Notes: generated by a model not told the origin, from the sequence alone. A stretch of DNA of 64,000 nt from a virus (IMGVR_UViG_3300001528_000360:88430-152429), one strand, 5' to 3'; positions 8,549 through 64,000 are shown, counted from the stretch's first letter. Program-made: numbers and translations.

Positions 8549-11378
8549 TTAAAGTTTCTCTTTATAAAATGGATCTAAGAAGGATTTACCACTCTTCTTA
8601 AATGTTAACGGTGAAGTTAACTGTCTTCCTAAGAATTGAGAGGACAAACCAATCAAAACAGATTCATGTTTTTCTAATGCAGAACTAATTGTTAACATTT
8701 GTGTGTCAGCAATTGCATCATAACGCTTAAAATCGGGTCTCTCCAAAACATCATCAATAGAACGAATCAGAGGAGCAAGCATTACTTCAGCATGAACACT
8801 CTGTACATTAATTTTAGATTCAATTAACAAATCAAGAAATACTTGTGCAAGTTCATGAATATTAGTAATTCCGAGTTCTGCGCGTTTTTCTTTGGTATCG
8901 AGTAAACCCATTATCTGATACAGGGGTCTTGTTAATTCTGCATTTTCAATTTGTAATAAGAATAATTTTCCATCATCAGGAATATCATTAAATTTAATTT
9001 CTGTAAAATTCTCTTTCTGTTTCTTATTCTTTTTAATTAATTCTTTCAATTCAGGACTGATATACATTTCTTTTCCAGTTTTCTCAGTAATTTCGAAAAT
9101 TTCACCAGTCTTATTATTCTTAACACTAAAGAGAGTTAAGAATTCATTTAAATCACCTTCGTCAAGAGCACTAAGTGTAACAATATTATCGTTGATAATT
9201 AGCAATGAGTAATCTTCAATATCATAGTCTCCTTCAATGTTAATACTAATCTCATTAGCATTAAGATTAAAGAACTTATAGAAATTTTCATCAAATTCAA
9301 TAGTTTCTGAATTTGTTGTTAGCAAATGTTTAGAAGATAGAACTGACTGTGATAAAGGATTTGTTATTACCGCACCAGCGTATGAACCAATCCCAACGCC
9401 ACCACAATTAGTATGAAATAGTATTGGACCATAGCAATCTTTACAAATACCTTTATGAGATGCACATGTTATTGGAGATTTAACAAGAATCTTTTTACCA
9501 ATAACGAATCTATCATTTTCTGTTAAAACACTATAATTTCTCTGATTAGGAAGACGATACATTCTTCCAATTAATCTCTTGAAGTGTTCTTCAGTTTTAA
9601 TCTCAAATTCAATAGGATGTACTGATCTGCAACTTTTTTCATCATCTCTTAACTTCATATTGGATACGAGCAACATACACTTACGCGCGAAGTAGCCCGA
9701 TTTCTGAAAATGTTAACATAAGAACGCTACTTCCTATGCAAACTACTATTGTAGTTTCTTTATGTTTCCATAAAGCACAGACTATATCTTCAACCTATAT
9801 TAAGGTTGCCTCTCATTTCCATTGTCAATCACTTACAATGTACGGTTTGTCACCTAGTCGTTGAACCTTACTTATTATAAATAAGTCTTGGCTGCTGATT
9901 GTCTACAGCATTACTTGTTTAGAGTTTCCAGCAATTAAAGAGGTTATTTTTCGAACACATTGCTGTGAACGTGAGCTTTACCAAACCCATTACGTTTTTA
10001 TTAAAGATAAGAGATTTTCTTCCCGTTTATGTTCATATAGAGTCGTTACTTCTATACCGTCATATTTAATGACTGCTCTAATTTACATTAGAGACCAGAC
10101 TATATCTTCATCTTAATATAAAGATGTCTTCCATTTCCATCCACTTGGATGTACGTGCTAAGCACTAGTCGTTGAACCTTACTCTATATATAAGAGTCTT
10201 GGCTGCTGATTATCTTAATAAAGATTTTCCAGCATTTAAAAAGAATTCACTATAATATCACTATTATAGTGGGCTTAAAGTTAACCAATGGCGTCAATAT
10301 AATATCCAGTTACAGTTGACAATCCACCAACTACAAGATTTGAATTAATAGGAATAGGAATAGTTGCACCTTCAAGAGAAGGTTTCATTCCCATATTAAT
10401 ACTGAACTCCGAAAGCTGTTTCGTTACTACTTTATATTTCTATAAAGACTAGACTATATCATCACCCTTATATTCTGTTACCAAATATAAGGAGCCTACC
10501 ATTTCCACATTTAAGTGTACTCTACTTGGTTATTCCTATAAGTATTTCTCTTATAGTATCCTTTCGATAGTCGTTGAACCTTACTTATTATAAATAAGTC
10601 TTGGCTGCTGATTGTCTTTGGCTTTACCCATTAAGAGTTCCCAGCAATTAAGTAGGTTTTTCCAATGTATTACTACATCTCGGGACAAAATTTTTATTCT
10701 ATCCTTAATTCCAGTTCCGGATCTCAGCATAGGCTGAAGAACGTTTTCTTCTTGAGATAAGATTTGAATTTCTTCTCTCATTAATTTATGAAGTTGATCT
10801 TCAATTTCACTAGGTTGCATAGCAGGATCAAAATGAGTTCTAATGATTTCATTAAATCTTGGATTCTTATTAGCAACATCCATAAAGGATTCAATTGACA
10901 TAGAATTACCAAGAATAATATTAAACTCAGTAGAGATCTTACTAAGATTGAAAATCAAATCATGAATGATCTTATTTAATTTCTTATTAGAAATTTTATT
11001 TCTATAAGGAATAATAATTTTATTATCAATATAATTCTTAATATACTTAGATGAAATAGTATAGCAATCTACAAGGAATGTTTTATCAAGATGATCTACA
11101 GAGTCAAGAACGATAAGAGGTTCCCAGAAAATTAAGTTCGTTAAGAAATGTCTTAATTGTAATGAAAGAATCTCTGTATCAGATTCATGGAATTTGAAAT
11201 GAACCATACATTCACGAAGTTCTTTATGCTCAAATCCTGCTCTGAGATAATCAAAAATTGATTCAATAAAAATTTTGTATTCCTTTGGATCTTCCATCTT
11301 TTTCTCAATAATGTACATATTATCGTACAAGAAACTTATAATGTCTTGTACTTCCTTAGGGAGTTGCTCATTTGGCAT
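8549..11378 (-). CDS. rpoC: Phage multisubunit RNA polymerase, beta' C-terminal-half subunit (4 exons, ~669 aa)
   Basis: Exons 11378-10701, 10421-10284, 10023-9985, 9703-8549 join in frame; they restore YIDAIG|GRKSL..MG|KSGYFARK (bridge helix) plus SPITC..GICKDCYG (Zn) and SQSVLSSKH (trigger loop). Confidence 0.85.
9704..9984 (-). mobile_element. Group I intron, ORF-less (beta' gene, intron 3)
   Basis: P AATTGCTGGAAA, Q AATCAGCAG, R GTTCAACGACTA, S AAGATATAGTC; 5' exon ends U, intron ends G. Confidence 0.9.
10024..10283 (-). mobile_element. Group I intron, ORF-less (beta' gene, intron 2)
   Basis: P/Q/R/S core present; GGT|GGA junction restores the frame. Confidence 0.9.
10422..10700 (-). 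mobile_element. Group I intron, ORF-less (beta' gene, intron 1)
   Basis: P/Q/R/S core; P1 GGAU/GUCC; junction IKD|KQL. Confidence 0.88.
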
Positions 11379-11485
11379 GTTTACATCCTCCTTTAATTAT
11401 TTCTATATCTATAATATATATCTAAAAACATTTTTGAATAAAATATAAGATAGATAATGATATTACTCATTATCTATCTTATATA

Positions 11486-11576
11486 TGGCGGACGCTCAGG
11501 GATTCAAACCCTGGATACCTTATCAGGGTATTACAGTTTTCAAGACTGTCGCCTTCGATCACTCGGCCAAACGTCC
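11486..11576 (-). tRNA. tRNA-Ser(UGA) with encoded CCA
   Basis: Acceptor stem GGACGTT/AGCGTCC, anticodon arm ACAGT-CTTGAAA-ACTGT, long variable arm, 3' GCCA. Confidence 0.92.
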
Positions 11577-11673
11577 ATTATTTATATGTATACAGCTTAA
11601 TAAAAAGTTATTTTTATCTATTATTATCAAATTAACATTTAAGTAATAATATTGATATAAGGAGGAGATTTCT

Positions 11674-12810: not shown

Positions 12811-12822
12811 AAAAAAATAGTT

Positions 12823-12859
12823 AATGAGAGCAGAGGTTATTCCTCTGCTCTCATTTTTT
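12823..12859. terminator. Bidirectional intrinsic terminator
   Basis: AATGAGAGCAGAGG...CCTCTGCTCTCATT between convergent genes. Confidence 0.75.
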
Positions 12860-31155: not shown

Positions 31156-34100
31156 TTACAACTTAATATCAATTACATAATTATCTCTTCTCATCTTCGC
31201 ATCTTCAAATTCAGTATCAACTAATTTCAAAAATTCTTCATCTGTTCCAACGAAACAAACATCATCACGATATTTCTTAAGAATTTTATCTTTTAGTTTA
31301 ATGTCTTCATACTCTTTACGAGTAGAGATAATATACATAGTATCAGACTCAAAAGATTCAAGATTATCTGAATAAATAGGAATATCATAATAGTCATCTA
31401 GGTATTCGATCTTCAATCCCATTGCCTTTAGATAAGCTTGAAGTATCTCTACATTTCTATTAGTGAAATTACCACTCTTCTTAAAATCTTTTAAAGTCTT
31501 TACAGTTGTTGCTAGTTGCTTTCCAATGTCTCTACGTCCAATAACACTTGAACGATAAAACATATGAAGTTTAGCAACTTCCTCAGGATCTACACCGATA
31601 AGACTGTTTATATTTTCTTGCAAAATCTTCACATAAGTTCGTTAATCTTATGCAGTTCTCTTATGAACTTCTCTATATCTCTATAGAAGTTGAGACTATA
31701 TCTTCATCCTTATAATAAATAAGGAGCTCTCCATTTCCACTCACTTGAGTGTACTCCTACAATAGGATAGTCGTTGAACCTATATCTAAATATTTATTAT
31801 TTTAATCTTCCGTTATACAGGTTATAGATATAGTATTGGAAACGTTTTGGGGTTAAATTCAATTCAGGATATTTATTACACATAATTCTACTCACCTCAG
31901 CTTTAGTATTTCCAGCATCTACTAATTCTTTAATCTCATTAACAAATTTATCTGAAAATTTTACATTACAACCATTTTCTCCAACTTTAGTCTTAAGTTT
32001 ATTATCAAATAATCCTGTTCTAAAAGCATGTTTCATATTTTCATCATGAGTTACCCACTCAAGATTATATATAGAATTATTTGATTTATCACCATCAATA
32101 TGATTAACGAATTGCTTATTATCTAGATTAGGAATGAATTCATATGCAACCAATCTATGTATAAATACAAATGTTGAATGCTTCTTCTTACCTGAGGATA
32201 ATGATACTGCATAGTATCCTTTTTTAGTCTTTTTTGGTTTAAGATATTTATTTGTCTTAGTATTATAAACGTTCCCATTACTATCTATAGTATACATATC
32301 TGGTTTAACACCAGGATATGATATATATTTTTCTATACCAGGAATTTGTACTAACATATTTCATAATTAAATATTTAGATATTTTAGCTGCGGATTGTCT
32401 CTATCCATAACCTTATTACTATACCTAAGGAATTACCCTTCGCCATTTATATATTTCTATATAAATTTAGTAGTTATAGCTTAACAAGATGTCCCCGCAA
32501 TTAAAAGAGTGCTAATTAATATATTACTATATTAATGCAACCAATTATAATATAATCGCCAATTCTTATAGGGGTGCTAGAATACAGATCCTGATGAATT
32601 TTATTCTTAAATGATTTTTCAGGAACACCTTTCTTATTAAGGGATCCTGTAGACCTTGCTGAGAAACCTTTCTTAGAAGATTGCTTAAGCTTAATCATAT
32701 AGAGATCGCCAACAATCAAAGGTTTCATGATCTTAATCTTTCTACCCCATCTGTTAACATAAACATCTACAGGTTTGATAAAATCATAATCTTTATAGAT
32801 ATTTCTGATTCTATCAAACATAGGTTCTTTTTCTTCCCAGAATGGAGGCATATGAATATAAATTCCTCTTTCATCAACATCGTTAAAGAAATCTTTCTTT
32901 CCTTTAGAAGATAGATTCTTATAGTAAGTCTTTAATACTTTTTCTTCTTTTTCATTAAGACGTTTAATGATATCAAAGAATAAAGTTTCTTTTTCTTTTA
33001 AAGTTTTAAATTCCCTAAGTTTTTCTACAACTCTATTACAGATAAAGTTGATACTTAACTCATATAACTGTAAACTGTTCAAGCGATTTATGACACCTAA
33101 CGCGTTAAGCATGACTTCAACACGTTCACCATTTTCTAAATAAGGCATTTGATCATCAGGTAAAATCTTACTGACGACACCTTTGTTACCCTGTCGGCCT
33201 GTACATTTATCTTCATATAAGATCGTTACTCTTATACCGTTCTCTTATGAACTGCTCTAATTTACATTAGAGATGAGACTATATCTTTATCCTATTAGGA
33301 TATTTCTCATTTCCACTCACTTAAGTGTACGTGCTAAACACTAGTCGTTGAACCTTACTCTTAAAAATTATAATTACAAGAAATAGTTTTCCAACTTCTT
33401 CTATGTCTAATATGATCTATCAGTTTATACAGCTGTGGATTTGAACTTTTATTATGAAATCCAAAAGTTTTCATAATTTGCATATTTGAATAACCTTCTT
33501 GTAAAAATTCACAAATTCTTATAACTTCATTTTTTGAAAATACATTCAAATAATGATCTTCTCCACATTTTATATTTCCTTCAAAAACTCCATAAATACT
33601 ATTCATTTTACTACTTACCCATTCTAAATTTCCAGCAAAATTATTTTTAGTATTGGAGTCTAAATGATTAGGAATGTATCCTTCTTTATATCCTTTACAA
33701 AATTCCCAAGCTACTAATCTATGAATAGATCTATTCGTTTGATCTTTGCTACTATATTCTGGATCATTCGCTAATGCAATTCTAAGATATTCTTTGTGTT
33801 CAAAAGGTTTTTTAATATTACCAGTTTTAATATTACGAATTTTTCCATAATTACTAATTTCATATACACCTTTTTTAACTCCAGGATATGTCAGAGGTTT
33901 ATATACTTCTTTTGTATAAATTAATACTACCATATTATAATATCCTTTCATTTTTAAGAGTCTTGGCTGCTGATTATCTTATAAAAGATTTTCCAGCAAT
34001 TAGAGAAAATTCATTTATATATTACTATATAAATGGACTATAATTAATCTTCTGGCCTATAGTTAATGGTGAATCTCTTTCAATTAAAAATTCAATAACC

Positions 34101-36176: not shown

Positions 36177-36254
36177 AGATCTACCTTCCTTTTATTTAAT
36201 TTAATAAATTAGAGAGTGTAGATTTTATTCTACACTCTCTAAATCCATTTCGGT

Positions 36255-36527
36255 TTAGTTAGATACTACAGTATAATCTTTGGGTTTAGAATTAGCAATA
36301 TACCAATTATCTAATTCAATAAGATTCTCTTTAGGAACCTCATCAGCAATGATATCAGTAATTCTATGAAATCTTTCAATCCCAGGAAGATTATTCTTAA
36401 TAAAAGTTTTTAATTCTTCTTTATTGTCATAAGGAATCTTTTCATTTCTTTTCCAGAAAATCAAAGCATCGTCACGTGGCATCTTAATACAAATCTGATA
36501 ATAATATTCATTCGTATTGATAGCCAA
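36255..36527 (-). CDS. Hypothetical protein
   Basis: 90-aa ORF; early promoter motif at 36569-36578. Confidence 0.6.
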   Translation of the reverse strand: MAINTNEYYYQICIKMPRDDALIFWKRNEKIPYDNKEELKTFIKNNLPGIERFHRITDIIADEVPKENLIELDNWYIANSKPKDYTVVSN

Positions 36528-36591
36528 AGCATTTCAACTCCTTCTATATTTTCTTTGCCACTATGGGTATAATATATACTTTAAATATATT

Positions 36592-41499: not shown

Positions 41500-42627
41500 T
41501 TAGCCGCCATACTTACTAAACAAATCATCCATGTCGAACTCGGAACTCTGCTTCATTACCTGAGTTCTAAGCTCTTTAATCTTATTCGTTCCATCATCGC
41601 TATCCAATACAGAACTTTCCTTCATACTGGCAAGTTCTTCAAGTCCAGACTCAATACGCTGAACCATCTTAGTAAGACGATCATCAGGAACAGACAAACC
41701 AGATGCAATTAAAATCATCCGATTGGTTTCATCATTTCCAGCAATATAAGTATGCTCGAAGATCTCAACCGGAGTACCGATCATATCCTGAATCTTTGTA
41801 TAATTAGGATCGACCATCTTATTCAGCTTAGTATTGAGATTCGTGATAACACCGATCTTCTTAACAATCTTATCACGATCAAGCTCAACATTACCAGATA
41901 CATTCTTAATAACATCAATCATAGAATCTTCGATAGTCTTACTATCAAAATCCTTTTCCTTAATATTATCAAGCACATATACTGCCATACGTCCAGGAGC
42001 GCTAATGATTCCCAAAAGGTCTTTTTCGTCAATCGAATTAAACGGAGTAGGATAGAGATAATCGCCTCTAAACACAAGAAGTGTATCAACGATTTCCTTA
42101 TTAATCTTCTGCATCATCTCAGGAGTAGGAAGATTAGCAAATCTATTATTATCATACGCCATATAAGAGACATTCGGAAGATTAGTCCTAACTTCCTTAA
42201 GATAATCAAGACTATTCTGCTGTGCCGCCAGAGATTCCCCAAGAGGCGGATAAACCTCAATAAGAATAAACTTCTTATCAGGGAACTTTCTGGATACGAT
42301 ATCGCACATCATCGGTGCCATTCCTGAACCAGTGCCACCACCAATAGAAGAGATAATGAAAATAATATCATTCTCTTCAATATGGTTGACGAACTTTTCC
42401 TGCTGAAGAAGAGAAGCTACATGAAGTTTAATAAAATTCTTAGCTTCATCTCGATTCTTGCCTGCACCTCTGGTATCGCCCATAATGATCTTATGAATAT
42501 TATTGATATTCGTAAGATCTTTTTGAGAACTATTAATGGCAATACCAGGAATATTGTACGTTGTCATAGCAAGTTCAGCAATCTGGTTTCCGCAATTTCC
42601 GAAGCCAATTGTACAAATGTTGATCAT
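41500..42627 (-). CDS. tubZ: Tubulin/FtsZ-family GTPase (PhuZ/TubZ-like)
   Basis: GFGNCGNQI, GAGKN, GGGTGSG signature, DNN, SIDEKD (T7 loop). Confidence 0.88.
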   Translation of the reverse strand: MINICTIGFGNCGNQIAELAMTTYNIPGIAINSSQKDLTNINNIHKIIMGDTRGAGKNRDEAKNFIKLHVASLLQQEKFVNHIEENDIIFIISSIGGGTGSGMAPMMCDIVSRKFPDKKFILIEVYPPLGESLAAQQNSLDYLKEVRTNLPNVSYMAYDNNRFANLPTPEMMQKINKEIVDTLLVFRGDYLYPTPFNSIDEKDLLGIISAPGRMAVYVLDNIKEKDFDSKTIEDSMIDVIKNVSGNVELDRDKIVKKIGVITNLNTKLNKMVDPNYTKIQDMIGTPVEIFEHTYIAGNDETNRMILIASGLSVPDDRLTKMVQRIESGLEELASMKESSVLDSDDGTNKIKELRTQVMKQSSEFDMDDLFSKYGG

Positions 42628-43362: not shown

Positions 43363-44241
43363 ATGAAAGGAGCGATAATTATTAGTAGTATTGATCTAAA
43401 GGCTTTTGAAAAAGGTCAAGTGTGGAAAATGGACGGAGAATCTTGGACACCAGAACTAAGAAACTCTGGAATTACTGTTGGTGATAGACCTGTAATTATC
43501 TATCGAACAGTTGAAATTCGTAGTGGATTTGTAACAGTTATTCCTACTAGTATGAATCCAGTTAAAAAGAATGGAGTAAGATTAAAATTAGAAGAAAATA
43601 AACAAGGAATTGCTCTTGTACAGGAAATTCGACCTGTACCAATTAGTAAACTAACAACATTCTTAGGAACTCTAAATAAAAGTAAGCTTGAAGAAATTGA
43701 TAATGCTCTTAAAATTTATCTTGGACTTGAAGAAGATCCTGAACTTGAAAAGAAGGTCTTTTATGTAACCGGTCCTTCAAGACCATATTTTAATAGTAGG
43801 GAGTGTCCAGCACCTACAGTTTATCATGCTAAACCTATTGAAAAAGAAGAAATTATTAATGATAAACCTGCAGAAATTGAAAAACCTAAGAAACCTTCAA
43901 AATCTAAAAATAAACTTTCTCATCTTACACAAGAAGAAAAAGAATATGTAAAAAGTCATAAAATTAAAGAAATTTCTAATTACTTACATATCTCTACATC
44001 CACAGCATATCGTTATAGAAGAGCTCTTGGCACCAATGTTTCTAAAACTGAAAAGCCTGATTACTCTGATAAAATTTATAAAAATTTCTACAAGAAAAAT
44101 CTAAATATTATCAAAGAACCAGAAAAAAGACTTTTCTTAAAACTTAATCCTGAAAAGCTTTCTAAATTTACAAATCTGCCAATTGAAACTATTAATGAAT
44201 TTAGAGAACGTTTTTCTAAAGAATTAAATATTAATCTATAA
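43363..44241 (+). CDS. PemK/MazF-like endoribonuclease domain with a C-terminal HTH-containing extension
   Basis: GQVW..G..RPVII..VTVIPTS..LVQEIRPV..KL..LGTL..LEEIDNALKIYLGL; later KEISNYLHISTSTAYRYR. Confidence 0.75.
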   Translation: MKGAIIISSIDLKAFEKGQVWKMDGESWTPELRNSGITVGDRPVIIYRTVEIRSGFVTVIPTSMNPVKKNGVRLKLEENKQGIALVQEIRPVPISKLTTFLGTLNKSKLEEIDNALKIYLGLEEDPELEKKVFYVTGPSRPYFNSRECPAPTVYHAKPIEKEEIINDKPAEIEKPKKPSKSKNKLSHLTQEEKEYVKSHKIKEISNYLHISTSTAYRYRRALGTNVSKTEKPDYSDKIYKNFYKKNLNIIKEPEKRLFLKLNPEKLSKFTNLPIETINEFRERFSKELNINL

Positions 44242-47432: not shown

Positions 47433-49347
47433 ATGCTCTTCAAGACAAATCAACGAGAAAAATATGTCGATCAAACAAAGAAAATTCCAATTAAATTTGA
47501 CATCAGTATGTTGAATATGTTTATTGGTTTCATATTTAAGAAATCTGTTCAGATTACAAGAAAATCATTAATGAATATGAAACGATTATTTGCTGTAATT
47601 GATGAATCTATTTATGAAAATAGTGATCAGTTACAAGCAAGAATTGAATTTATTAATAAAGCTCTTGAAGCTAGATTAGATAAGGGATTTGAAAATGATG
47701 AAATGATTATCAATTATTGTAAATCAGATGTTTATGATAAAGACAATCAAGACATTATTAATAATATTCCTATATACACTAGGATTAATTATGAGGAAAT
47801 TAAATATATAAATAAATGTATTGAGGATAGACTTCAGTATTATTATTTATATTATTATAAGGATGCCATTTATGAAACCATAGAAAGACTTGACAGTGGT
47901 GATTATAAGTCTTTCTATGAGATCAATAATAAAATGGCTAGTATTTGCACTGATTTAATTAATAGAATTCGAAATAGTAAATCAGTCGATACGGAAGATC
48001 AATTTTGTTTAAGTGATGAAAACTTTGACTCTAATGTATTAGATATTGTAGAAAAACTTCAGAATCCATCTCGTATTATACGAACAGGTATTCAGAAATT
48101 AAATGAGATTCTTTCACCTGGGTTAATGAGCAGTAGATTATACATGTTTCTCGGATTGCCAGGTGGTTGGAAATCTGGTATGCTTCTTAAAATTATTAGA
48201 GATACGAAAATGTATAATCGAGATATTCAACCAAAGAAACCAGGTAAGCATCCATGTGCATTATTAATAACTATGGAGAATGAAGTTGCAGAAACAGTTG
48301 AAAGATTATTCAATATGTCTGTTTCAAATTCTAATATCAGAGATTATACTCCAAAGCAAGTATTAAAAATGATTAAAGACTCAGGAGAATTAACAGTAAC
48401 TAATGATAATGGTATTGATATTGTCATTAGATATTATCCTAATAGATCTATTGATACTAGTGATTTATATACTATTATTGATGATCTTGCAGATGATGGT
48501 AAAGAAGTCATATTATTAGCATTAGACTATGTTAAAAGAATTCGTCCTGCAGAAAAAGGAAAAGATGAAAAAGAAGAATTAAAAAATATTACTAATGAAT
48601 TAAAATCATTAGCTATTGATTATGATATACCAGTTGTATCAGCGCATTAAATAAGGTGCCATAATATAGTGATATATTATGAAAACTTTCCTAATTGCTG
48701 GAACCTCTCACATGAGACAATCAGCAGCCAAGACTCTTTAATGAGTAAGGTTCAACGACTAGTGCTTAGCACGTACATCTAAGTAGATGGAAATGGAAAG
48801 CAACCTTTCAATAATATTATTAAAAAGTTGAAGATATAGTCTCATCTCTAATATAAAAATTAGAGCAGTTCATAATGGAACGCATATAGAGTAACGACCT
48901 ATATGGAAGATAATGCAATTAAATAGATCTGGTGCGTCAGTAGTTGATGCTGCAATGCAAGCAAATAAAGAAGATCTTGGTCGTTTCTTAGGAAGATCTA
49001 ACGTGGGCAGTGCCTGGGAAGTGATAGAGAACACAGATGTTGCAATCATTATTAACGTAGAAAAGAAACGACAAACTGGTCAATACTATTTGACATTTAA
49101 ACGTGTAAAAATTAGATATAAAGATCTATCAGAAATCAGTTATTTTAATCATCCGTTTAATCCTAATAATAAGATGCAACTTGAAGATGATCTTTTACTT
49201 GATCATTCTTTATCTGAAGATAGTTTAGTATCTGATTTTGATGCTGTGGATTTATTAAATAAGAAAGGTAAACGTACTGCAACAGAAAGAGAAACAGTTG
49301 CTGATGAAGATGTCTTCTTATTTAATAATGCAATTAATAAAAATTAA
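47433..49347 (+). CDS. dnaB: DnaB-like replicative helicase (2 exons, ~548 aa)
   Basis: GLPGGWKS, TMEN, LDYV; exons 47433-48647 and 48916-49347 restore PVVSAH|QLNRS. Confidence 0.9.
48648..48915 (+). mobile_element. Group I intron, ORF-less (dnaB)
   Basis: AATTGCTGGAA, AATCAGCAG, GTTCAACGACTA, AAGATATAGTC; U|...G junctions. Confidence 0.92.
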
Positions 49348-50465: not shown

Positions 50466-52709
50466 ATGATAGAATTAACTGAACAACAACAAGAGGCACT
50501 TGTTAAAGCAAAGAAATGGTGGAAAAATAGAAATTCGTCTACGTTCGAGATTTCCGGAGCTGCGGGAACTGGAAAAGCTCAACCAATAGATACTATCATA
50601 CCTACTCCTGATGGAGATAGATTATTAGGTGATTTAAAAGTTGGCGATTATGTATTTAATAGATTAGGACAACCTGTTAAAGTTTTAGGTGTATATGATC
50701 AAGGTTTATTGGATGCTTACGAAGTAATATTTGATGATGGTAGACGAACTATATGTAATGATGAACATCTATGGTGTGCTAAAAAAGGATCTAAGAAATC
50801 AGCTAAATTTAAAATTAAAACAACTAGAGAAATGATGAATCATGGCTTAGTTGATACTGTGCACAGGGGACATATTTTTAAAGTTCCAATAAATTCAGCA
50901 GTAGAATATCCTGAAAAAGAATATTCTATAGATCCTTATGTTATTGGCGCATTTATAGGTAATGGGTGTTGTAAGCAACATATTTTAACATTTTCTTCTA
51001 ATGACATAGAAACAGTTCAAGAAATTACAAAACTTATTGGTGCAACTAATTATCGTAGATCACATGAAACAAATTATAATTATATGTTTTTGGTTAATGA
51101 AAACGATAAAAAATTATATAAACACATTAATCATATAAAATATATTCAAACAAAAACATTTTTTAAAGATTATCCAGAACTTATCGGTGGATCTAAAGAT
51201 AAAAGAATACCTAATGAATATTTTTATGGAAGTATAGAGCAACGATGGTCACTTATTCAAGGCTTATTTGATACTGATGGTTGTATTACTGTGGCTGAAA
51301 ATAGATTTAATATAGTATATACTAGTGTTAATTTACCATTAATTCATGATATACGAAAATTGTTATTGAGTTTAGGATGTTGCTCAACTATACGTGCTAA
51401 TATAAGGGAAGGTAAATCAATATGTTATGAACTATATGCTAAAGTTGATAATGCAGTAAAAATAAATTTCTTTAGATTAAAACGAAAGAAAGATATAGCT
51501 AAATTAGCAAGTAAATATATAAAAAACCATATATATAGTACATCATATATTTATGATATTAAAAATCTTGGATATAAAACAGAAATGAGATGTATATATG
51601 TTGATGATCCTGAACATCTTTACTTAACTAATGATTATATAGTAACACATAATACAACCGTAGTTAGCTTTTTAATAGATGCATTAGGTTTGAATCATGA
51701 TGATGTATTATTTCTTGCATATGTTGGAAAAGCTACTCTAGCTTTATCTCGAAAAGGAAATAATGCTCATACTATACATAGTGCAATATATGATGCTATA
51801 TATACTCCTAAACTTGATGAGAATGGTAATATAATTACTATAAATGGTAAAATAGTAACAACTATTGAATTTATTAAAAAAGAATATCTTGAAAAAAATA
51901 TAAAATTAATAGTTGTAGATGAGGGTGCTATGGTATCTGAAAAATTAGCACTAGATATATTATCATTTGGATTACCAGTTATAGCATTAGGGGATAATAA
52001 TCAATTAGACCCTATATTTGGAGAGAGATTCTTTTTAAAGAATCCTGATGTAACATTAACAGAACCTATGAGACAAGCATTAGATTCTCCAATTATTTAC
52101 CTTGCTCAAAGAGCAATGAAAGGTAAAATGATTAGAGAAGGTAAGTATGGAGATTCATGTTATGTAATAGATAAATCTATGATAACTGATAATATGTTAG
52201 CTAAATCTGATGTTGTCTTATGTAATAGAAATAAAACTAGAGATGAACTAAATAGGTATATTCGAAATGATATTATGAAAATTAATAGTGAAGTTCCTAA
52301 AATAGGAGAAAAACTTATTTGTAGACAGAATAATTGGAGCAAATGTCTATTAAATAATATTTATCTTATTAATGGTATGGTTGGTTATGTTGATAATGTA
52401 TATCTCGATACATATAATGGACGAACTATAACTATTGATTTTCGACCAGATTTCTTAGAATATGATTATTTTAAGAAATTAAAAATTGATTTCAAACATT
52501 TAAATAGTGTACCTGATTCAAAGAATATGAAACGAAGTTTTTATGAAAAATTTGAATATGGATATGCTATAACAACTTTTTTAGCTCAAGGTGCAGAATG
52601 GGATAAGGTTTTCGTGTACGCAGAACAATATGGTACTGTAGATTTTCAAAAGAAGGTATTATATACAGCAATTACCCGTGCTAAGAAATTTTTAATTTTG
52701 GCATTTTAA
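50466..52709 (+). CDS. SF1B (Dda/RecD-like) helicase containing an intein
   Basis: GAAGTGK|TT after intein removal, TIHS, VDE, GDNNQL, MRQ, YAITTFLAQG, YTAITRA. Confidence 0.9.
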   Translation: MIELTEQQQEALVKAKKWWKNRNSSTFEISGAAGTGKAQPIDTIIPTPDGDRLLGDLKVGDYVFNRLGQPVKVLGVYDQGLLDAYEVIFDDGRRTICNDEHLWCAKKGSKKSAKFKIKTTREMMNHGLVDTVHRGHIFKVPINSAVEYPEKEYSIDPYVIGAFIGNGCCKQHILTFSSNDIETVQEITKLIGATNYRRSHETNYNYMFLVNENDKKLYKHINHIKYIQTKTFFKDYPELIGGSKDKRIPNEYFYGSIEQRWSLIQGLFDTDGCITVAENRFNIVYTSVNLPLIHDIRKLLLSLGCCSTIRANIREGKSICYELYAKVDNAVKINFFRLKRKKDIAKLASKYIKNHIYSTSYIYDIKNLGYKTEMRCIYVDDPEHLYLTNDYIVTHNTTVVSFLIDALGLNHDDVLFLAYVGKATLALSRKGNNAHTIHSAIYDAIYTPKLDENGNIITINGKIVTTIEFIKKEYLEKNIKLIVVDEGAMVSEKLALDILSFGLPVIALGDNNQLDPIFGERFFLKNPDVTLTEPMRQALDSPIIYLAQRAMKGKMIREGKYGDSCYVIDKSMITDNMLAKSDVVLCNRNKTRDELNRYIRNDIMKINSEVPKIGEKLICRQNNWSKCLLNNIYLINGMVGYVDNVYLDTYNGRTITIDFRPDFLEYDYFKKLKIDFKHLNSVPDSKNMKRSFYEKFEYGYAITTFLAQGAEWDKVFVYAEQYGTVDFQKKVLYTAITRAKKFLILAF
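50577..51653 (+). mobile_element. Class 3 (Ala-start) intein with a LAGLIDADG endonuclease, 359 aa
   Basis: Starts AQPID, block B CNDEHLW, PYVIGAFIGNG / LIQGLFDTDG, block F MRCIYV, ends VTHN|T; inserted in the P-loop. Confidence 0.9.
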
Positions 52710-56520: not shown

Positions 56521-59500
56521 TTGGAAGACAACGTACAGAAGTTCATAGATGATAAGATAGAACACATCGAAAGTGATATAAAGAAAATTCAGGTTAAGCC
56601 TGGAATGTATATCGCAGAAATAGGTGCTAATGGTGCATTGCATCTCTGTAAAGAATTAATTAATAATGCAATTGATGAATGTATTAATAAAAATTCTCCT
56701 GCTGATACAATTGATGTATTTCTAGATGAAGGAGAAAATGAAATTACAGTTTCAGACAACGGGCGAGGAATTCCATTTGAAAATTTAATTATTGTATGTA
56801 CTACATTACAATCAGGAAGTAAATTTACACGAGAAGGTGCAGGATCTTCGAGTGCAGGCGAAAACGGTAAACTTCAATGCTGTTGTAAAACTCTCTTAAT
56901 TGCTGGAAAATCTATAATAGATAATCAGCAGCCAAGACTCTATATAGAGTAAGGTTCAACGACTAGTCATTATGACGTACATTCAAGTGAATGGAAATGG
57001 AGAGCAACTTTTATAAGTTGAAGATATAGTCTGATCTCTATAGAAATATAGAGCAGTTCATAAGAGAACGACACAAGAGTAACGATCTTGTGTGAACGAG
57101 AATGGTCGGACTCACAGCAGTAAATAGTCTATCTCACAAATTTGAAATTATATCTTATAGATATGGTGAAAAAGGGAAAGTATCATTTACTGAAGGTGAA
57201 TTAATTGATCAATCAGTTACTAAGATTAAGAATAAAGATAAGCATGGTTCAACTTTTATTATGCAACCTTCTAGGGAGTATATGGGTCAAGACTGTGATA
57301 TTAGTTCAGATAATCTTATTAGCTGGATTGAAAAAATTGTATATTTATTACCTTCTAATATTAAGTTAAATCTTAGTATTAAGAAGAAAGGTAAAGAATC
57401 TTTAGTTAACAAAAAGTATAGTAATAAAAGAGGACTCTATGACTTAGTAAATAAGATGTGTCAAAGACCGCTTTTAGATCCAATATCTTTTATTCAAACA
57501 ATGAGAACGAAAGAAAAAGTTCATGATAGATTGATTGATAGATTTATTGGACTTGAAGTGGCTTTTACATATAATTCTAATAGCGTAGAGTTTGAAAGTG
57601 AATCTTTTTGTAATTTCGTTAATACCTTCGATGGTTAAAACTAAGCCCACTATAATAGTGATATTATAGTGAATTCTTCTTAAATGCTGGAAAATCTATA
57701 ATAGATAATCAGCAGCCAAGACTCTTATATAGAGTAAGGTTCAACGACTAGTCATTATGACGTACATTCAAGTGAATGGAAATGGAAGACATCTTTATAT
57801 TAAGATGAAGATATAGTCTGGTCTCTAATGTAAATTAGAGCAGTTCTTAAGTGAACGATATGAGATTAACGAACTCATATGAACATTAACGGGTGTTCAT
57901 GTAGATGCTGTTAAAACAGGTATTCTACAGTATTTAACGAAACAAGCAAAAGATTCTTTATCTGAAAGAGAAGCAAAGAAACTTGATATTACTTTTAGTG
58001 ATGCATCTCAAGGATTATTCTTAGCTGTTTATTTAAGCACTGATTATAATCCTCAGTTTGCGTCACAGATTAAATCTAAGATGTCTAGTAATGAGTTTTT
58101 CAAACCATTACGTGAAATGACATATAGAGCATTAACAGAATATTTTAATAAGAATCCTAAAGATCTTAAGAAGATTATTGATCGAGTAAAAACAAATGCA
58201 AAAGCTCGTATTGAATCAACTAAAGTTCGTAATTCTGTTATTCGTGGTGAAACCACTAATTTTGAAGAACATCTAATGGAAAACTTTATTCCTGCAAATA
58301 ATCGTGGAAGAAATGATTATAGAGAACTCATCATAATCGAGGGTCGCAGTGCACGAGGTTCCGCTGAAACAGGCAGATTTGATCGTGACACACAGGCAAT
58401 TTTTAGTATTAGAGGAGTTCCATTAAATGCATTTGGTTTAAACATTGATAAGGTTCTTCAGAATACTGAATTTAATAATTTAATTAAAATATTGGGATGT
58501 AATTGCGGCAGTCGTTTTGATATGTCTAAGTTAAAATATAATAAGATTATATTGATGGCTGACGCGGACAGTGATAAAGTCTTGTCACTTAACCTCCTTA
58601 ATTGCTGGAAAATCCTTAGAGCCTAAAGTAATAAAATAATTCTTTAGGATTGGATAATCAGCAGCTAATTATTCGATTTTGTTAAGAAATAAAATATAAA
58701 AGTTGGTGATAGAATAAAATGAGATTAGAAAAAATTATATTTATCAATGGAAATAAAACAACTTATAAGGTTACTTCTGATGGGAAAGTGTTTAATTATA
58801 AAACAAATAAATATCTTTCACCATCATACAATCATAAAGGCTATAAAATGGTTGTATTATATGTTGATGGTGAGCCAATAACAAGAACTATTCATAAATT
58901 AGTAGCTTTAGCTTTTATACCAAATCCAGATAATTTACCTGTTGTAAATCATATTAATGGTGTTAAGACAGATAATAATTATACTAATTTAGAATGGTGT
59001 ACATATCAATACAATACTAGACATGCTTGGAAAACCGGACTAACAAAAGCTTTACGAGGATCAATTAATGGACATTCAAAATATAATGATGATCAAATTA
59101 TCAAAGTATGTGAAATGTTAGCTGATAATAAACCTCTTAAAGAAATAAAAAAAGAAACCGGTGTAAAAGGTGATACAATTACCAAAATATTATATCACAA
59201 TCAATGGCCAGATATAAGTTGTAAATATAAATTTGATAAAGATTATTATAAAAGTTTATTAAAATCTGTAGATGCTGATCTTGAGCGTAAAATAGAAAAT
59301 TGTTTATTATCTGGTATTCTTAAAGAAAAAGATATAAAAAAGAAATTAAACATTCCAGATAATAAATCAATACATTCAGCATATAAAAGATTAAAATCTA
59401 AGCACAAATTAACAAAATCGAATAAAAGTTCAACGACTATCGAAAACGATGATCTCTATACAATAGAGATTCATTAAGTGAGTAGATTACACTCAAGTGA

Positions 59501-60451
59501 GTGGAAATGGGAGGCAACCTTCTTAAATATTTAAGAAGGTTGAAGATATAGTCTAAACTATATAGAAATATATAGCAGTTCTTAAATGAACGGTATAAGA
59601 GTAACGATCTTATATGAATATATTTGGGATATAATATCACATCCTTATTATGTGCATTCTTTATGACCCATTTACCTGAGATTGTGAAGGATGGGAGACT
59701 ATATAAATCTGTATCTCCATTATATCGTATTAAGAGTAAATATAAAGAGTTTATTCTTAATAAGAAAGAGTATGTTGAAATTTTTGAAAGACAGGTTAGA
59801 GATAACTTATCCGTCATGAATCCTTCTACTAAGAAGATGTATACAGATACTGAACTTCAACATGTTCTTATGGTTAATAGAAATTATCTTGAAGAATTGA
59901 TTAGATTATCTAATCGTGTAGTAATTAATCCGACTGTTCTTGAATATATCTTAATTCATCGTAAGGAAAAGAATTTCTATAAAGAATTTAGAAAAGAATT
60001 TCCTGAATTAATAATAGATGATGATAATGTCTTAACTGGTATTTATGAAGGACGTTATCAGATTCTTATTATGGATAAAATTTTCGAGAAAAGAATCAGT
60101 CAATTAGAAGAATTTATTAATGATGAAAATCGTCATATGTATTTTAATGTCTTTGAAAAATCTCCTAATGGAAATATTGATAAAGGGGTAATGTCTTTAG
60201 GACAATTTTTGACTTTAGCTCAAAAATATCAACCTATTATAAAGACTCGTTATAAGGGAATCGGTGAGTTGAACCCTAAAGATTTAAGAGATAATACTCT
60301 TGATCCTAGACATCGTATTTTAATTAGGTTGACTATGAGTGATTTAGAGAGAGATTTAGAGAAGTTTAATATTTTACACGGTGATGATTCATCTGAAAGA
60401 AGACTTCTTATGGAGCACTTTAAGATTGATCGTGATGACCTCGACAATTAA
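56521..60451 (+). CDS. gyrB: Type IIA topoisomerase/gyrase subunit B (4 exons, ~795 aa)
   Basis: PGMYI, ELINNAIDE, DNGRGIP, GENG|VG, DG|GVH, EGRSA, ADADSD|G, RYKGIGE; exons 56521-56868, 57105-57635, 57892-58575, 59627-60451. Confidence 0.93.
56869..57104 (+). mobile_element. Group I intron, ORF-less (gyrB intron 1)
   Basis: P/Q/R/S core; in-frame junction. Confidence 0.9.
57636..57891 (+). mobile_element. Group I intron, ORF-less (gyrB intron 2)
   Basis: P/Q/R/S core; GGT|GGT junction. Confidence 0.9.
58576..59626 (+). mobile_element. Group I intron with HNH gene (gyrB intron 3)
   Basis: P ~58600, Q ~58656, R ~59428, S ~59543; splits the TOPRIM DxDxD|G motif. Confidence 0.9.
58719..59477 (+). 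CDS. Intron-encoded HNH homing endonuclease
   Basis: IHKLVALAFIPNP..VNHINGVKTDN..NLEWCT. Confidence 0.92.
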   Translation: MRLEKIIFINGNKTTYKVTSDGKVFNYKTNKYLSPSYNHKGYKMVVLYVDGEPITRTIHKLVALAFIPNPDNLPVVNHINGVKTDNNYTNLEWCTYQYNTRHAWKTGLTKALRGSINGHSKYNDDQIIKVCEMLADNKPLKEIKKETGVKGDTITKILYHNQWPDISCKYKFDKDYYKSLLKSVDADLERKIENCLLSGILKEKDIKKKLNIPDNKSIHSAYKRLKSKHKLTKSNKSSTTIENDDLYTIEIH

Positions 60452-60465
60452 AAGGAGAAATTAAC

Positions 60466-60768: not shown

Positions 60769-60779
60769 AAAATAAATTT

Positions 60780-60814
60780 TTATAGGTAAGCTTGAAATAT
60801 AGCTTACCTATAAA
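60780..60814 (+). terminator. Intrinsic terminator upstream of array 3
   Basis: TATAGGTAAGCT...AGCTTACCTATA hairpin. Confidence 0.7.
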
Positions 60815-60833
60815 AATTAATTAATTTTTAAAG

Positions 60834-60843
60834 TATATATTAT
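60834..60843 (+). promoter_or_regulatory. Putative early promoter TATATATTAT
   Basis: One of 16 intergenic copies, all oriented toward downstream genes. Confidence 0.7.
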
Positions 60844-60850
60844 AATAGTA

Positions 60851-61166
60851 TAAATCAAGAGTAATTAATTGTATCATAGACCATAAATGAATCATATGCT
60901 GGTATTGTATCATAACTCATAAATGAATCATAAAAAATAATAGTATCAAAGCCAATAAATGAATCAAGTAAACTAATAGTATCATCGACAAATAATGAAT
61001 CAAAGTCCCTAATAGTATCACAATTACTCAATGAATCAGATAGCAATACAGTATCAAAACGTAAGAATGAATCAAAAGGGATTATAAAGTATCAGAACGT
61101 AATAATGAATCATTATTATCAATAGTATCAAATTTGTAAAATGAATCAAAACTAAATATAGTATCA
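60851..61166. repeat. 18-nt-period alternating-motif array 3 (17 units plus degenerate terminal motif), inverted relative to arrays 1 and 2
   Basis: ATAGTATCA / AATGAATCA alternate with unique ~9-nt spacers. Confidence 0.95.
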
Positions 61167-61225
61167 TTTACCACAAATGTATTTTTACATTAAAAAATTT
61201 ATTTATTTGAAAGGAATTAACAACA

Positions 61226-62179
61226 ATGGAAACTACTGGAAAGATTAAGCTCTTTAGCGATTCTGATCTTGATGGCATCAGCTGTGGAATTCTTGCCAAG
61301 TTTGTTTTTGGTGAGGAACGTGTTGATACGATGTTTTGTACTCCGAAGGATATTAATCAGAGACTAATGTCTTTTATTGAAAAGGAAGAGTACAATAAAT
61401 ATGATAAGGTCTTTATTACTGATCTTGTTATTAAGCCTGAAACGGCTGCAAAGATTGATAGCATTCCTGGCTTTAAGTTTAAGCTCTTTGATCATCATAA
61501 GTCTAATTATACTAATAGTAAGTATACTTGGGTTACTGTTAGTGAAAATTTTGTAGGACGTAAAACTTGTGGAACAGAACTTTTCTATAATCATCTTCTT
61601 GAATACTATATTGAAGTTCGTAATGATTATATTGAAAAGTATGTTGAGTATGTTCGTCTTTGGGATACATGGGAATGGCCTTCTGCCGGTGCAGATGGTA
61701 TTTATGCAAAGAAGCTTAATACTCTTCTTTCTATGTATAGCAATACAAAGTATATGAACAGTATTATTATTCCTCTTGAGAATAATTCTACCACTTTCAT
61801 CAGTGATAGTGATGAAGAGATTCTTAAGGTAGAGGAAAATCGTAAGAATCGTTACATTAAGCAGAAGTCCAGAAATATTCGTGTAATGGAAGTAAGTGGA
61901 CATAAGCTTGGTTTCGTATTTGCAGAAAATTATATTTCTGAACTTTGTAATTACATGCTTAAGAATATTGAGGGTGTTGAAATTGCAGCAGCTATCAATG
62001 CTGATGCCCATGTTGTTTCTCTTAGAACAACGGAAGCTACTGGTATTGATGTGTCTGAATTTGCAAAGACATTTACTCCTCAGGGTGGTGGACATCCTCT
62101 TAGTGCAGGCTTTGTATTTAATACAGAGTATGAAACTAAGTTTGTACAGGATATCTTCCAGACCTATTCTAAGGAATAA
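61226..62179 (+). CDS. DHH-family phosphoesterase (NrnB-like)
   Basis: DLDG, ITD, DHH, CGT, GGGHPLSAG motifs. Confidence 0.9.
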   Translation: METTGKIKLFSDSDLDGISCGILAKFVFGEERVDTMFCTPKDINQRLMSFIEKEEYNKYDKVFITDLVIKPETAAKIDSIPGFKFKLFDHHKSNYTNSKYTWVTVSENFVGRKTCGTELFYNHLLEYYIEVRNDYIEKYVEYVRLWDTWEWPSAGADGIYAKKLNTLLSMYSNTKYMNSIIIPLENNSTTFISDSDEEILKVEENRKNRYIKQKSRNIRVMEVSGHKLGFVFAENYISELCNYMLKNIEGVEIAAAINADAHVVSLRTTEATGIDVSEFAKTFTPQGGGHPLSAGFVFNTEYETKFVQDIFQTYSKE

Positions 62180-62323
62180 GCATAAAAAAGAAAGTAGAGT
62201 TTTATCTCTACTTTCTTTTTTTTATATTTTTTAACTAAGATTTAAGATATATATTATTATAGTATAAAGCAATAAGGCTTTCAACAAAACTTTATAGTAA
62301 TAAAATACGAGGTGATTAGAATT

Positions 62324-63655
62324 ATGAAAGACAAATCAAATAAAGTTAGTGTAGAAACTTATAGTTCTAATGTAGAAAATGTAAATATAGCAGATGCTTG
62401 CTCATCATACATGCAAATCTTTGGAGCCAATACAAATTTAGCCCGTCATTTACCAGTAGTGCTAGATGGCCTAAAGCTTGGTGAAAGGAGAATCCTTTAT
62501 ACAATGTATAAAATGGGATTAAGGTATGATGGGGAAACGACAAAGGTTGCAAGTATTGTAGGTAACGTATTGTCTTTGCATTAACATGTGAGTGCCGTAT
62601 AATAGTGATATTATATGTAAAACTTCCCTAATTACTGGAAACTCTAAACAGGTAAAGCTGTAGATAATCAGCAACCAAGACTTATTTATAATAAGTAAGG
62701 TTCAACGACTAGTCTTTATGACGTACATCTAAGTAGATGGAAATGGGAAGCAACTTAATAAGTTGGTGATATAGTCTAATCTCTATAGAGATATAGAGCA
62801 GTTCATAAGAGAACGCATATAGTGTAACGAGCTATATGGAATATGAATGCCACACGGTGATTCTGCTGTTGAAGATACGTTAGTTAAACTTGCTCAACCT
62901 TGGAATAATATCCAATGTACTATTGTCGGTTCAGGTAACTTTGGTTCTGTTGCTGGAGCTAGTGCCGCCGCTGGTCGATACATTGAAGCTAAATTATCTT
63001 ATTATGCATATAAATGTTTCTTTGAAGAGTATGATGATAAGATTGTAAATACTAAATTAAACTATCTTGGCAATATGCTTGAACCAGAATTTCTTCCTGC
63101 TAAATACCCAAATGTTATGATCAATAACACGTTTGGCATTGGTTACGGCATTTCCACGAGTATATGCACATATAATCTTAAGGAAGTACTTGAAGCTACT
63201 ATTAGTTTAATGGAAGATCCTGATCAAGATGTTATTATGTTATATCCTGATTCATCTACTGGTGCAAGTATAGTAGACGAGGGACAGTTCGAGCAGATTT
63301 GTCGAACTGGTAAGGGTAGATTTAAGATGAGAGGTGTTATTGAAATTGATGAAGATAATAATATCCTCAATATTAAATCAACTCCTCTTATGACTTCTTG
63401 GGAAAAAATTAAAAGACCATTATTTGAATTATTAAATGATGGTAAAACTAACTTAATGAAAGATTTTAAAGATCTTTGTGAATTTAATACAATGCATTAT
63501 CAAATCTTTCTTAAGAAAGAAGTTGATCCATATAGTGTTGTTAGTATGATTTATGCTAAGACACAAATGGAAAAAACATTCAATGTTAACTTTAAGTTAA
63601 TCGAAGATTGGGCTGACCAAGATTATAATATTAAATCTGTATTACAGACGTGGAT
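62324..63655 (+). CDS. gyrA: Type IIA topoisomerase/gyrase subunit A, 3'-truncated (exons 62324-62581, 62850-63655)
   Basis: DGLKLGERRILY, KVASIVG, LH|PHGDSA, GNFGS, AAAGRY (catalytic Tyr), EPEFLP. Confidence 0.92.
62582..62849 (+). mobile_element. Group I intron, ORF-less (gyrA intron 1)
   Basis: P/Q/R/S core; junction restores HPHGD. Confidence 0.9.
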
Positions 63656-64000
63656 TGAAAATTAGTCCCTATAAATAGTAATATTTATAGAAAACTTCCC
63701 TAAATGCGGGAAACTCTCGTTAGGCTATAACTACTAAATCTATATAGTAATATATAGATGGCAATGGGTAATTCCAAAGGTATAGTAATAAGGTTATAGA
63801 TAGAGACAATCCGCAGCTAAAGATTCATAAAAATATTAAATAAAAAAAACATTTTACAATTGTCATAAAAAATAATAAAGGAGGTGAAATATATGTTAAC
63901 AATTAATGTATGGAGATCAATTATTATAAATGGTATTTTAACAAATTATCTTGTATCATCAGATGGTAATATATATAGTAAGAGTATGGATAAAATTATG
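63656..64000 (+). mobile_element. Group I intron (gyrA intron 2), runs off the window
   Basis: P1 GGAU/GUCC, P AAATGCGGG, Q AATCCGCAG. Confidence 0.8.
63893..64000 (+). CDS. Intron-encoded ORF, probably an HNH endonuclease (truncated)
   Basis: AAGGAGG RBS; IIING..YLVSSDGNIYS resembles the N-termini of the 35208 and 58719 HNH proteins. Confidence 0.7.
   Translation, partial: MLTINVWRSIIINGILTNYLVSSDGNIYSKSMDKIM

Follow-up and report, generated by a model that had tools for sequence, protein, structure and literature searches.

The stretch of DNA analyzed here (the window, 64,000 nucleotides) comprises bases 88430-152429, the last 64 kb, of a linear 152,429-bp virus record in IMG/VR (IMGVR_UViG_3300001528_000360), a contig with a GC content of 29.7% and a completeness of ~62% as estimated by CheckV. 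Seven core genes in the window are interrupted: those for the beta'-C, beta-N and beta-C parts of a non-virion RNA polymerase (nvRNAP), a UvsX/RecA-like recombinase, a DnaB-like helicase, GyrB and GyrA. We propose that the insertions are very probably 15 self-splicing group I introns of the phage IA type, that they form one sequence family, and that their carrier is an AR9-like jumbo phage. Fourteen of the introns are complete and the 15th (i15) is truncated by the contig end; together they account for 8.4 kb, or 13%, of the window. Three lie in each of beta'-C, beta-C and gyrB, two in each of beta-N and gyrA, and one in each of the recombinase and helicase genes. An earlier note made from the sequence alone had given these same counts, and spliced alignments, Rfam searches and core motifs all uphold them; the region that it delimited starts at 9704, exactly the last base of i1. 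Genes and introns are listed below with intron open reading frames (ORFs), codon phase, residues on either side of the junction, protein lengths in amino acids (aa), and matches to the Rfam group I intron covariance model (RF00028, cut-off 50 bits).

8549-11378, minus strand: nvRNAP beta'-C; exons 11378-10701, 10421-10284, 10023-9985 and 9703-8549; 669 aa when spliced
10700-10422, minus strand: intron i3, 279 nt, no ORF, phase 0, splits GIKD-KQLS; RF00028 match 10430-10705 (minus), 89 bits
10283-10024, minus strand: intron i2, 260 nt, no ORF, phase 0, splits IDAIG-GRKS; RF00028 match 10076-10293 (minus), 102 bits
9984-9704, minus strand: intron i1, 281 nt, no ORF, phase 0, splits NVMG-KSGY; RF00028 match 9758-9994 (minus), 94 bits
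24416-27211, minus strand: nvRNAP beta-N; exons 27211-25865, 25381-25337 and 24715-24416; 563 aa when spliced
25864-25382, minus strand: intron i5, 483 nt, exact P7 and P9 motifs, core aligned; ORF 25755-25528 (minus), 75 aa, no known family
25336-24716, minus strand: intron i4, 621 nt, exact P7 and P9 motifs, core aligned; ORF 25223-24849 (minus), 124 aa, no known family
31156-36176, minus strand: nvRNAP beta-C; exons 36176-36052, 35048-34047, 33203-32555 and 31620-31156; 746 aa when spliced
36051-35049, minus strand: intron i8, 1003 nt, phase 2; HNH/NUMOD4 ORF 35927-35208 (minus), 239 aa
34046-33204, minus strand: intron i7, 843 nt, phase 2, splits GQKI-TGRQGNKG; HNH/NUMOD4 ORF 33951-33361 (minus), 196 aa
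32554-31621, minus strand: intron i6, 934 nt, phase 0; HNH/NUMOD4 ORF 32357-31797 (minus), 186 aa
36592-39040, minus strand: UvsX/RecA-like recombinase; two exons; 399 aa when spliced
38264-37016, minus strand: intron i9, 1249 nt, 3' end ambiguous, 37016 (A) or 37024 (G); HNH/NUMOD4 ORF 38068-37187 (minus), 293 aa
47433-49347, plus strand: DnaB-like helicase; exons 47433-48647 and 48916-49347; 548 aa when spliced
48648-48915, plus strand: intron i10, 268 nt, no ORF, phase 0, splits VSAH-QLNR; RF00028 match 48636-48865 (plus), 97 bits
56521-60451, plus strand: gyrB; exons 56521-56868, 57105-57635, 57892-58575 and 59627-60451; 795 aa when spliced
56869-57104, plus strand: intron i11, 236 nt, no ORF, phase 0, splits GENG-VGLT; RF00028 match 56829-57053 (plus), 98 bits
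57636-57891, plus strand: intron i12, 256 nt, no ORF, phase 0, splits TFDG-GVHV; RF00028 match 57626-57840 (plus), 100 bits
58576-59626, plus strand: intron i13, 1051 nt, splits Toprim DADSD-G; HNH/NUMOD4 ORF 58719-59477 (plus), 252 aa
62312-64000, plus strand: gyrA, 5' part; exons 62312 (probable ATG 62324)-62581 and 62850-63655; remainder past the contig end
62582-62849, plus strand: intron i14, 268 nt, no ORF, phase 0, splits LSLH-PHGD; RF00028 match 62572-62798 (plus), 86 bits
63656-64000, plus strand: intron i15, 5' part; P1, P2 and P3-P6, plus the first 36 codons of an HNH-like ORF from 63893

The exon structures follow from comparison with close relatives. Five IMG/VR contigs are closer to the window than any named phage (65-80% amino-acid identity), and two of these are rated complete (G002, 264 kb; G005, 247 kb); relatives were compared as whole contigs, namely G002, G005 and the 210-kb G004. 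Junctions were chosen for a preceding U, a terminal G in the intron and the closest fit to an intron-less protein, with curation by hand where tblastn ran into introns. Uninterrupted ORFs from all three relatives match the window piecewise and in the same order, and all seven spliced coding sequences are open, colinear with uninterrupted homologues and, except for gyrA at the contig end, terminated by a stop codon. Codon phase is 0 in 11 introns and 2 in i7 and i8, as well as in i9 and i15 at the adopted junctions. The alignment of spliced proteins to intron-less homologues that the earlier note had called for is almost gapless. Spliced beta'-C (PHROG 3015; best named match the AR9 beta' subunit) is 76% identical to an uninterrupted 683-aa ORF of G002 with 0 gaps, and beta-N, which matches AR9 g105 (the N-terminal part of nvRNAP beta), is 77% identical to a 580-aa G002 ORF, again with 0 gaps. 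Residues 1-595 of beta-C (Pfam Rpb2_6; matching the C-terminal part of AR9 beta) are 81% identical to the G002 ORF with 0 gaps, and for the rest the match is to ORFs of G005 and G004 that have no interruption at the i6 site. For most RNA polymerase (RNAP) exons PHROGs and tblastn were required, as Pfam alone named few of them. The recombinase gene (Pfam KaiC/RecA; PHROG 97, UvsX-like) is uninterrupted in all three relatives, and its spliced product is 80% identical to that of G002 with 0 gaps. The DnaB-like protein (Pfam divDNAB and DnaB_C) is 71% identical to its G005 counterpart (0 gaps) and 80% to that of G002 (2 gaps), both uninterrupted, and G004 has an intron at the i10 site. The gyrB domains HATPase_c, DNA_gyraseB, Toprim and GyrB_C (Pfam) are distributed over four exons, which once spliced are 80% identical to G002 with 1 gap, all three relatives having uninterrupted ORFs of 792-798 aa. 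The available 359 aa of spliced GyrA (Pfam DNA_topoisoIV) are 69% identical to an uninterrupted 799-aa ORF of G005 with 0 gaps.

Two of the exons are very short, and each has a ribozyme on both sides. The 39-nt mini-exon of beta'-C (10023-9985) encodes GRKSLIFNKNVMG, a segment of the bridge helix by its resemblance to beta' motifs, and i1 and i2 flank this piece of the helix. The 45-nt mini-exon of beta-N (25381-25337) encodes LDPSYLGRLDINVCG, and i4 and i5 flank the HPSYLGR...CG-TSDPG region of beta. The remaining split motifs are the GxKx-xGRxGNKG motif of beta (i7), the SxH-QLNR motif of DnaB (i10), the GHKL ATP-lid glycine motif of GyrB (i11), the Toprim DxDxD-G motif of GyrB (i13) and the HPHGD motif of GyrA (i14). 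That most of the introns interrupt highly conserved motifs, as had been noticed earlier, is borne out by a local measure: within 8 residues of the junction, identity to the relatives equals or exceeds the gene mean at 11 of the 15 sites.

The insertions are also recognizable as RNA. RF00028 exceeds its cut-off seven times in the window, always in an ORF-less intron, with scores of 86-102 bits. At laxer thresholds, partial matches to both halves or one half of the model appear for i6, i7, i8, i9 and i13 (21-41 bits), in which the ORF splits the model. The covariance-model search proposed in the earlier note therefore finds 12 of the introns wholly or by halves, and its count of seven introns lacking an ORF is exact. 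Alignment to the other introns places i4, i5 and i15 in the family. The 12-mer GTTCAACGACTA occurs exactly 14 times in the window, every time on the coding strand of the interrupted gene, and is exact in 27 of 27 copies across the whole contig; a shuffled window gives 3.4 matches even with two mismatches tolerated. A second motif, AAGATATAGTC, tags 13 of the 14 complete introns when one mismatch is permitted. Separate alignments of the 5' and 3' halves recover common P3-P6 and P7-P9.2 elements across the introns, so that the single shared core that had been claimed extends to all 15. A consensus fold of the seven ORF-less introns contains 60 pairs, 31 of which are maintained through changes on both sides in these 7 sequences. 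Among the covarying pairs are the long-range P3 helix and two hairpins (alignment columns 182-192 and 196-216) that lie between the P7 5' strand and the 3' strand of P3. In IA-type introns such as that of T4 td, P7.1 and P7.2 occupy this position, between P7 and the P3 3' strand. We describe the subgroup as 'IA2-like', an assignment based on the hairpins between P7 and P3' rather than on subgroup-specific models. Most of the introns run ~50 nt past the end of the Rfam model, through two more hairpins to a conserved ...TATGAAnAT...G tail; i3 and i9 lack this 3' extension.

Other interpretations of the inserts were considered and set aside: inteins by the presence of stops in all frames and by the match to an RNA model, group II introns by the lack of any Rfam match to them, and an assembly artefact by the occurrence of other introns in the same genes of three independent related contigs.

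At the splice sites, the upstream exon ends in U in 15 of 15 cases, and a terminal G stands at the homology-fixed junction of 13 of the 14 complete introns, the exception being i9. Just downstream of each 5' end, a guide pairs with its own exon over 3-8 bp with a U.G pair at the cut (P1): 4 bp with U.G in i3, 5 bp in i1 and i8, 6 bp in i5 and i11, and 8 bp in i9. Intron i8 has in addition a 5-bp P10, and the minimum-free-energy fold of i12 places the U.G pair at the splice site. Based on these elements, we propose that the pre-mRNA of each interrupted gene would fold into a P3-P9 ribozyme core, with the internal guide pairing to the last 3-8 bases of the upstream exon and the U.G pair positioned at the cut. 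Guanosine attack followed by exon ligation would excise the intron and bring the exons back into frame.

Several observations weigh against this reading. Splicing is here read from the sequence alone. Two introns, i4 and i5, are missed by Rfam, and their membership depends on alignment and exact core motifs. Non-cognate combinations of exon and guide form helices with a mean of 3.0 bp, as compared with 4.2 bp for cognate ones, and the 3-bp guides of i2, i7 and i12, the shortest of all, do no better than chance pairings; the length of P1 is therefore no statistical test, and these short guides by themselves are uninformative. Finally, the junction of i9 that is best by P1, P10 and homology (37016) ends in A, not G. 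The 5' splice site of this intron is fixed by an 8-bp P1 between the exon end GAGTCCCT and the intron bases GGGGACTC, with the U.G pair last. The six bases directly 5' of the guide are complementary to TCCAGG at 37015, giving a P1 and P10 that together span 14 nt. Joining 38265 to 37015 yields QDESL-PGG, with the best score against all three relatives and the length unchanged. The family-typical ...AAATG tail lies 8 nt upstream of 37016 (G at 37024), and G-ending alternatives score lower; an end at this tail needs either a 5' site without P1, or a U-A pair in place of U.G together with three extra residues. The P7 of i9 is identical to that of the other introns.

An alternative is that splicing has been lost from part or all of the set of insertions, leaving pseudogenes in fragments or gene pieces that are expressed one by one. 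The lack of a canonical terminal G at the best i9 junction would fit such a state, and RNAP subunits of jumbo phages are known to work as split polypeptides (PMC7598289). We nevertheless consider it very improbable. The exons retain 65-80% amino-acid identity to the relatives with no stop and no frameshift, and both mini-exons (39 and 45 nt) have kept their frame. The catalytic cores are kept to an exact 12-mer throughout the contig, with compensatory changes elsewhere, and the breaks fall inside motifs such as DxDxD-G, where separate fragments are not plausibly functional. Splicing of all 15 introns remains the explanation that we favor.

The introns differ in the genes that they carry. Besides the seven without an ORF, five (i6, i7, i8, i9 and i13) hold an ORF with Pfam HNH_3 and NUMOD4 domains (PHROG 59 and 959), i15 holds the start of an HNH-like ORF that resembles the HNH ORFs of i13 and i8, and i4 and i5 hold small ORFs. 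Judging from their coordinates, the HNH ORFs sit in the P6 loop and extend into the P7 region, and they are predicted homing endonucleases of the I-HmuI/I-BasI type. Because the five are mutually only 27-48% identical, they appear to be old paralogues, probably with different target sites. The i4 and i5 ORFs have no Pfam or PHROG match and are located in the loop where sister introns hold HNH genes; the 124-aa ORF of i4 has one weak relative, in G002, with 34% identity.

Occupancy of the intron sites varies among the related genomes. G002, G004 and G005 each lack an intron at 10 or more of the 15 sites, and none of them has one at any of the three gyrB sites, at the site in the recombinase gene or at either gyrA site. 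A few sites are apparently shared: i6 with G002 (approximately), i4 and i10 with G004, and a position near i1 with G005. There are also breaks near i7 in G004 and G005, located only approximately. Conversely, some sites unoccupied here hold introns in the relatives, for instance near gyrA residue 189 (G002 and G004) and near beta-N residue 363 (G005). This presence/absence polymorphism fits mobile (homing) introns. We propose that the HNH/NUMOD4 endonucleases encoded in the P6 loop would cut or nick intron-less alleles of co-infecting relatives, whereupon repair would copy the intron in. The short ORF-less introns most likely spread to new sites within the lineage with their guides retuned, or, as with i2 and i12, retained.

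Another proposal is that the high load is maintained because it benefits the phage, with intron endonucleases acting as weapons against co-infecting intron-less relatives and ribozymes perhaps timing expression. Interference of an intron-encoded endonuclease with a co-infecting jumbo phage has been demonstrated for PhiPA3 gp210 (PMC11620839; reviewed in PMC12908238). The introns of the window are concentrated in genes of replication and transcription, and occupancy varies between close relatives, conditions under which interference works. Half of the introns, however, have no endonuclease gene and so cannot themselves be weapons, and relatives with 3-6 times fewer introns exist. Nothing in the DNA distinguishes a benefit from plain selfish persistence. 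We regard a benefit as quite unlikely to be what maintains the load.

How the ORF-less introns reached their sites is a separate matter. Their median identity on the contig is ~80%, and several pairs in unrelated genes reach 88-92%, the boundaries of the upstream introns being approximate. The clearest case is that of i2 in beta'-C and i12 in gyrB, which are 90% identical over 256-260 nt. Their differences in two hairpins are compensatory, P1, P2 and the guide are the same, and their target sites have only TGGT-GG in common. This pattern is what guide-directed reverse splicing would leave, although trans-acting endonucleases or illegitimate repair may also have produced it. In such a route, the ORF-less introns would have entered unrelated sites by reverse splicing at guide-matching RNA followed by reverse transcription and recombination, rather than by endonuclease homing. 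Other ORF-less pairs with 88-90% identity in unrelated genes are compatible with it, and a reverse transcriptase in cis is unnecessary if the host or a co-infecting element provides one. Against it, no reverse transcriptase gene was seen in the window (the whole contig was not searched for one), and the six HNH endonucleases present, or ORFs since lost, could have acted in trans or earlier. Illegitimate double-strand-break repair also moves introns, and an identity of 90% means that the event was not recent. For the route of spread, to which this alternative is confined, we consider it possible but unlikely, and it leaves the assignment of the insertions as group I introns untouched. Guide-directed reverse splicing to new sites has long been proposed and, to our knowledge, rarely if ever been documented in nature. 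A bolder combination would have this phage be both the most intron-dense virus yet noted (at least 28 group I introns in 152 kb) and, through ORF-less copies 80-92% identical in unrelated genes and an i2/i12 pair sharing one guide and a TGGT-GG target, a natural record of that process, with the non-G end of i9 breaking the rule; we hold this only tentatively and would not expect it to be correct in full.

The carrier of these introns has no close named relative, as megablast of 20 kb of the window against 50,697 GenBank phages returned a single 66-bp stretch, 88% identical to the intron core of AR9, PBS1 and Internexus. With RNAP and gyrase exons as queries, the best named tblastn matches fall in the AR9/PBS1 group at 26-37% identity, the members matched being AR9, PBS1, BpSp, Listeria phage LPJP1, Staphylococcus phages MarsHill and Madawaska, and Yersinia phage phiR1-37. 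The split beta and beta' nvRNAP genes are homologues of AR9 g105, g089 and g154, and the gene order from the NAD-ligase gene to beta-N is the same as in LPJP1. Because of these protein matches and this gene order, we assign the phage to the AR9-like jumbo phages with multisubunit RNA polymerases, of which it appears to be a distant, uncultured member. A 375-aa protein of the tubulin/FtsZ family, PhuZ/TubZ type, is also encoded in the window (41500-42627, minus strand; Pfam Tubulin, E 3e-16).

The intron load extends beyond the window. Upstream of it (contig positions 23,000-87,000), 13 further introns of the family lie in six more genes, their exons being visible from the uninterrupted ORFs of the relatives. 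This brings the whole contig to 28 introns including i15, or ~1 per 5.4 kb. Counted by paired P7 and P9 core motifs, the densities are as follows.

This contig, 152 kb: 27 introns (28 with i15), 17.7 per 100 kb
G002, 264 kb: 9 introns, 3.4 per 100 kb
G004, 210 kb: 6 introns, 2.9 per 100 kb
G005, 247 kb: 16 introns, 6.5 per 100 kb

Density on the contig is thus 2-6 times that in the relatives compared. With RF00028 at identical settings there are 23 matches here, 18 in AR9 (251 kb), 14 in each of G002 and G005, 12 in BpSp, 5 in each of G004 and MarsHill (267 kb), and 3 in LPJP1. An extreme load, as first described from the sequence, therefore stands against all relatives measured in the same way. 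Model-based counts underestimate introns in the AR9 clade: the annotation of AR9 gyrA (AR9 35264-38405) joins three exons, and RF00028 gives no match there at E <= 0.001. A 15-mer around P7 was tried as a means of ranking load in IMG/VR and gave mostly a single match per stretch among the matches listed; it is a widespread core element, found even in giant-virus bins, so contigs cannot be ranked with it.

We view the window as a new and unusually crowded example of a published type of intron, not as a new type, with a density above that of any relative compared. The overall design is that of the classical IA2 introns of T4 (td, nrdB and sunY) and Twort (orf142 and nrdE), in which extra hairpins stand between P7 and P3', a peripheral loop holds an endonuclease ORF and the insertion sites are conserved motifs of genes for DNA metabolism, with several introns in a single gene in Twort; those genomes hold 3 to ~10 introns each. 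The nearest named counterparts are AR9 and PBS1, whose nvRNAP beta-N and beta-C are 30% and 37% identical to those of the window and which have the intron core in common (66 bp, 88%). AR9 also has several introns per gene (six exons in g189, three in gyrA) and HNH genes inside introns (KU878088 annotation; Lavysh et al. 2016). The first intron of its gyrA stops immediately ahead of HPHG, which places it at the i14 site or beside it. AR9 differs in having 18 RF00028 matches in 251 kb as compared with 23 in 152 kb, and in an uninterrupted gyrB where the window has three introns. The heavily interrupted genes among those looked at in AR9 are different ones, namely g189, which encodes beta of the virion RNAP, and the gene of a virion protein.

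Staphylococcus jumbo phages have introns in genes for RNAP subunits, a protease, a polymerase, terL and gyrB, and two gyrA introns are described for AR9 (Korn et al., bioRxiv 10.1101/2020.12.14.422802). The likeness to our contig lies in the RNAP subunit, DNA polymerase, terL and gyrB introns; in MarsHill and Internexus, gyrB is broken at the same Toprim DxDxD-G site as by i13. These phages have one gyrB intron rather than three, and RF00028 detects their introns poorly (5 matches in the 267 kb of MarsHill). The Jug phages carry a mean of 18.5 group I introns per genome, and metatranscriptome reads back the splicing of about half of the predicted ones (PMC12880540). In these and in crAss-like phages, as here, many ~200-nt ORF-less group I introns and HNH or other homing endonucleases fragment essential genes (PMC12880540). 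The lineages are unrelated, and the 18.5 introns of the Jug phages are spread over 360-402 kb (~1 per 20 kb) as against ~1 per 5.4 kb here.

The earlier note's statement that phage genomes usually hold a few group I introns is consequently out of date, a dozen or more having been published for AR9 and MarsHill (bioRxiv 10.1101/2020.12.14.422802) and for the Jug phages (PMC12880540). Its view that multiple introns in gyrase genes are unusual fails within the AR9 clade, where gyrA and gyrB introns are published. Among the named relatives looked at, none showed three gyrB introns or any intron in a recA-like or dnaB-like gene, although the AR9 recA-like and dnaB-like counterparts were not checked. 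A full-text literature search for group I introns in phage gyrase genes returned nothing specific, and the paper on the group I intron database does not treat phages.

If the introns splice as we propose, they extend upward the known range of self-splicing DNA that a virus tolerates in indispensable genes. Standard gene callers would render these genes as ~25 fragments, with no intact RNAP, gyrase, helicase or recombinase; since only fragments would be reported, the junctions listed above correct the annotation. The ~19 ORF-less copies are closely related but differ in their guides; compared with sister genomes that are poor in introns, they provide material on how such introns colonize new sites, and the same set should be useful for asking whether a heavy load gives an advantage in co-infection.

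A different kind of mobile element probably adds to the load. The helicase gene at 50466-52709 (plus strand) contains a 358-aa in-frame insert at 50580-51653 with a LAGLIDADG_3 domain. The insert splits the Walker A motif (GTGK-T) of a UvrD-like helicase, starts with Ala and ends with His-Asn followed by Thr. G002, G004 and G005 all lack this insert, which is very likely an intein. The Staphylococcus jumbo phages likewise have an intein in a replication gene, gyrA in their case. A 292-aa ORF at 43363-44241 (plus strand) has a PemK/MazF-like toxin domain at residues 38-119. Two repeat arrays, at 2835-3056 and 60866-61112, share an 18/36-bp period and are built on two 9-mers, TGATTCATT and TGATACTAT. 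The second array, located between gyrB and a DHH/DHHA1 gene, carries the reverse complements of these 9-mers.

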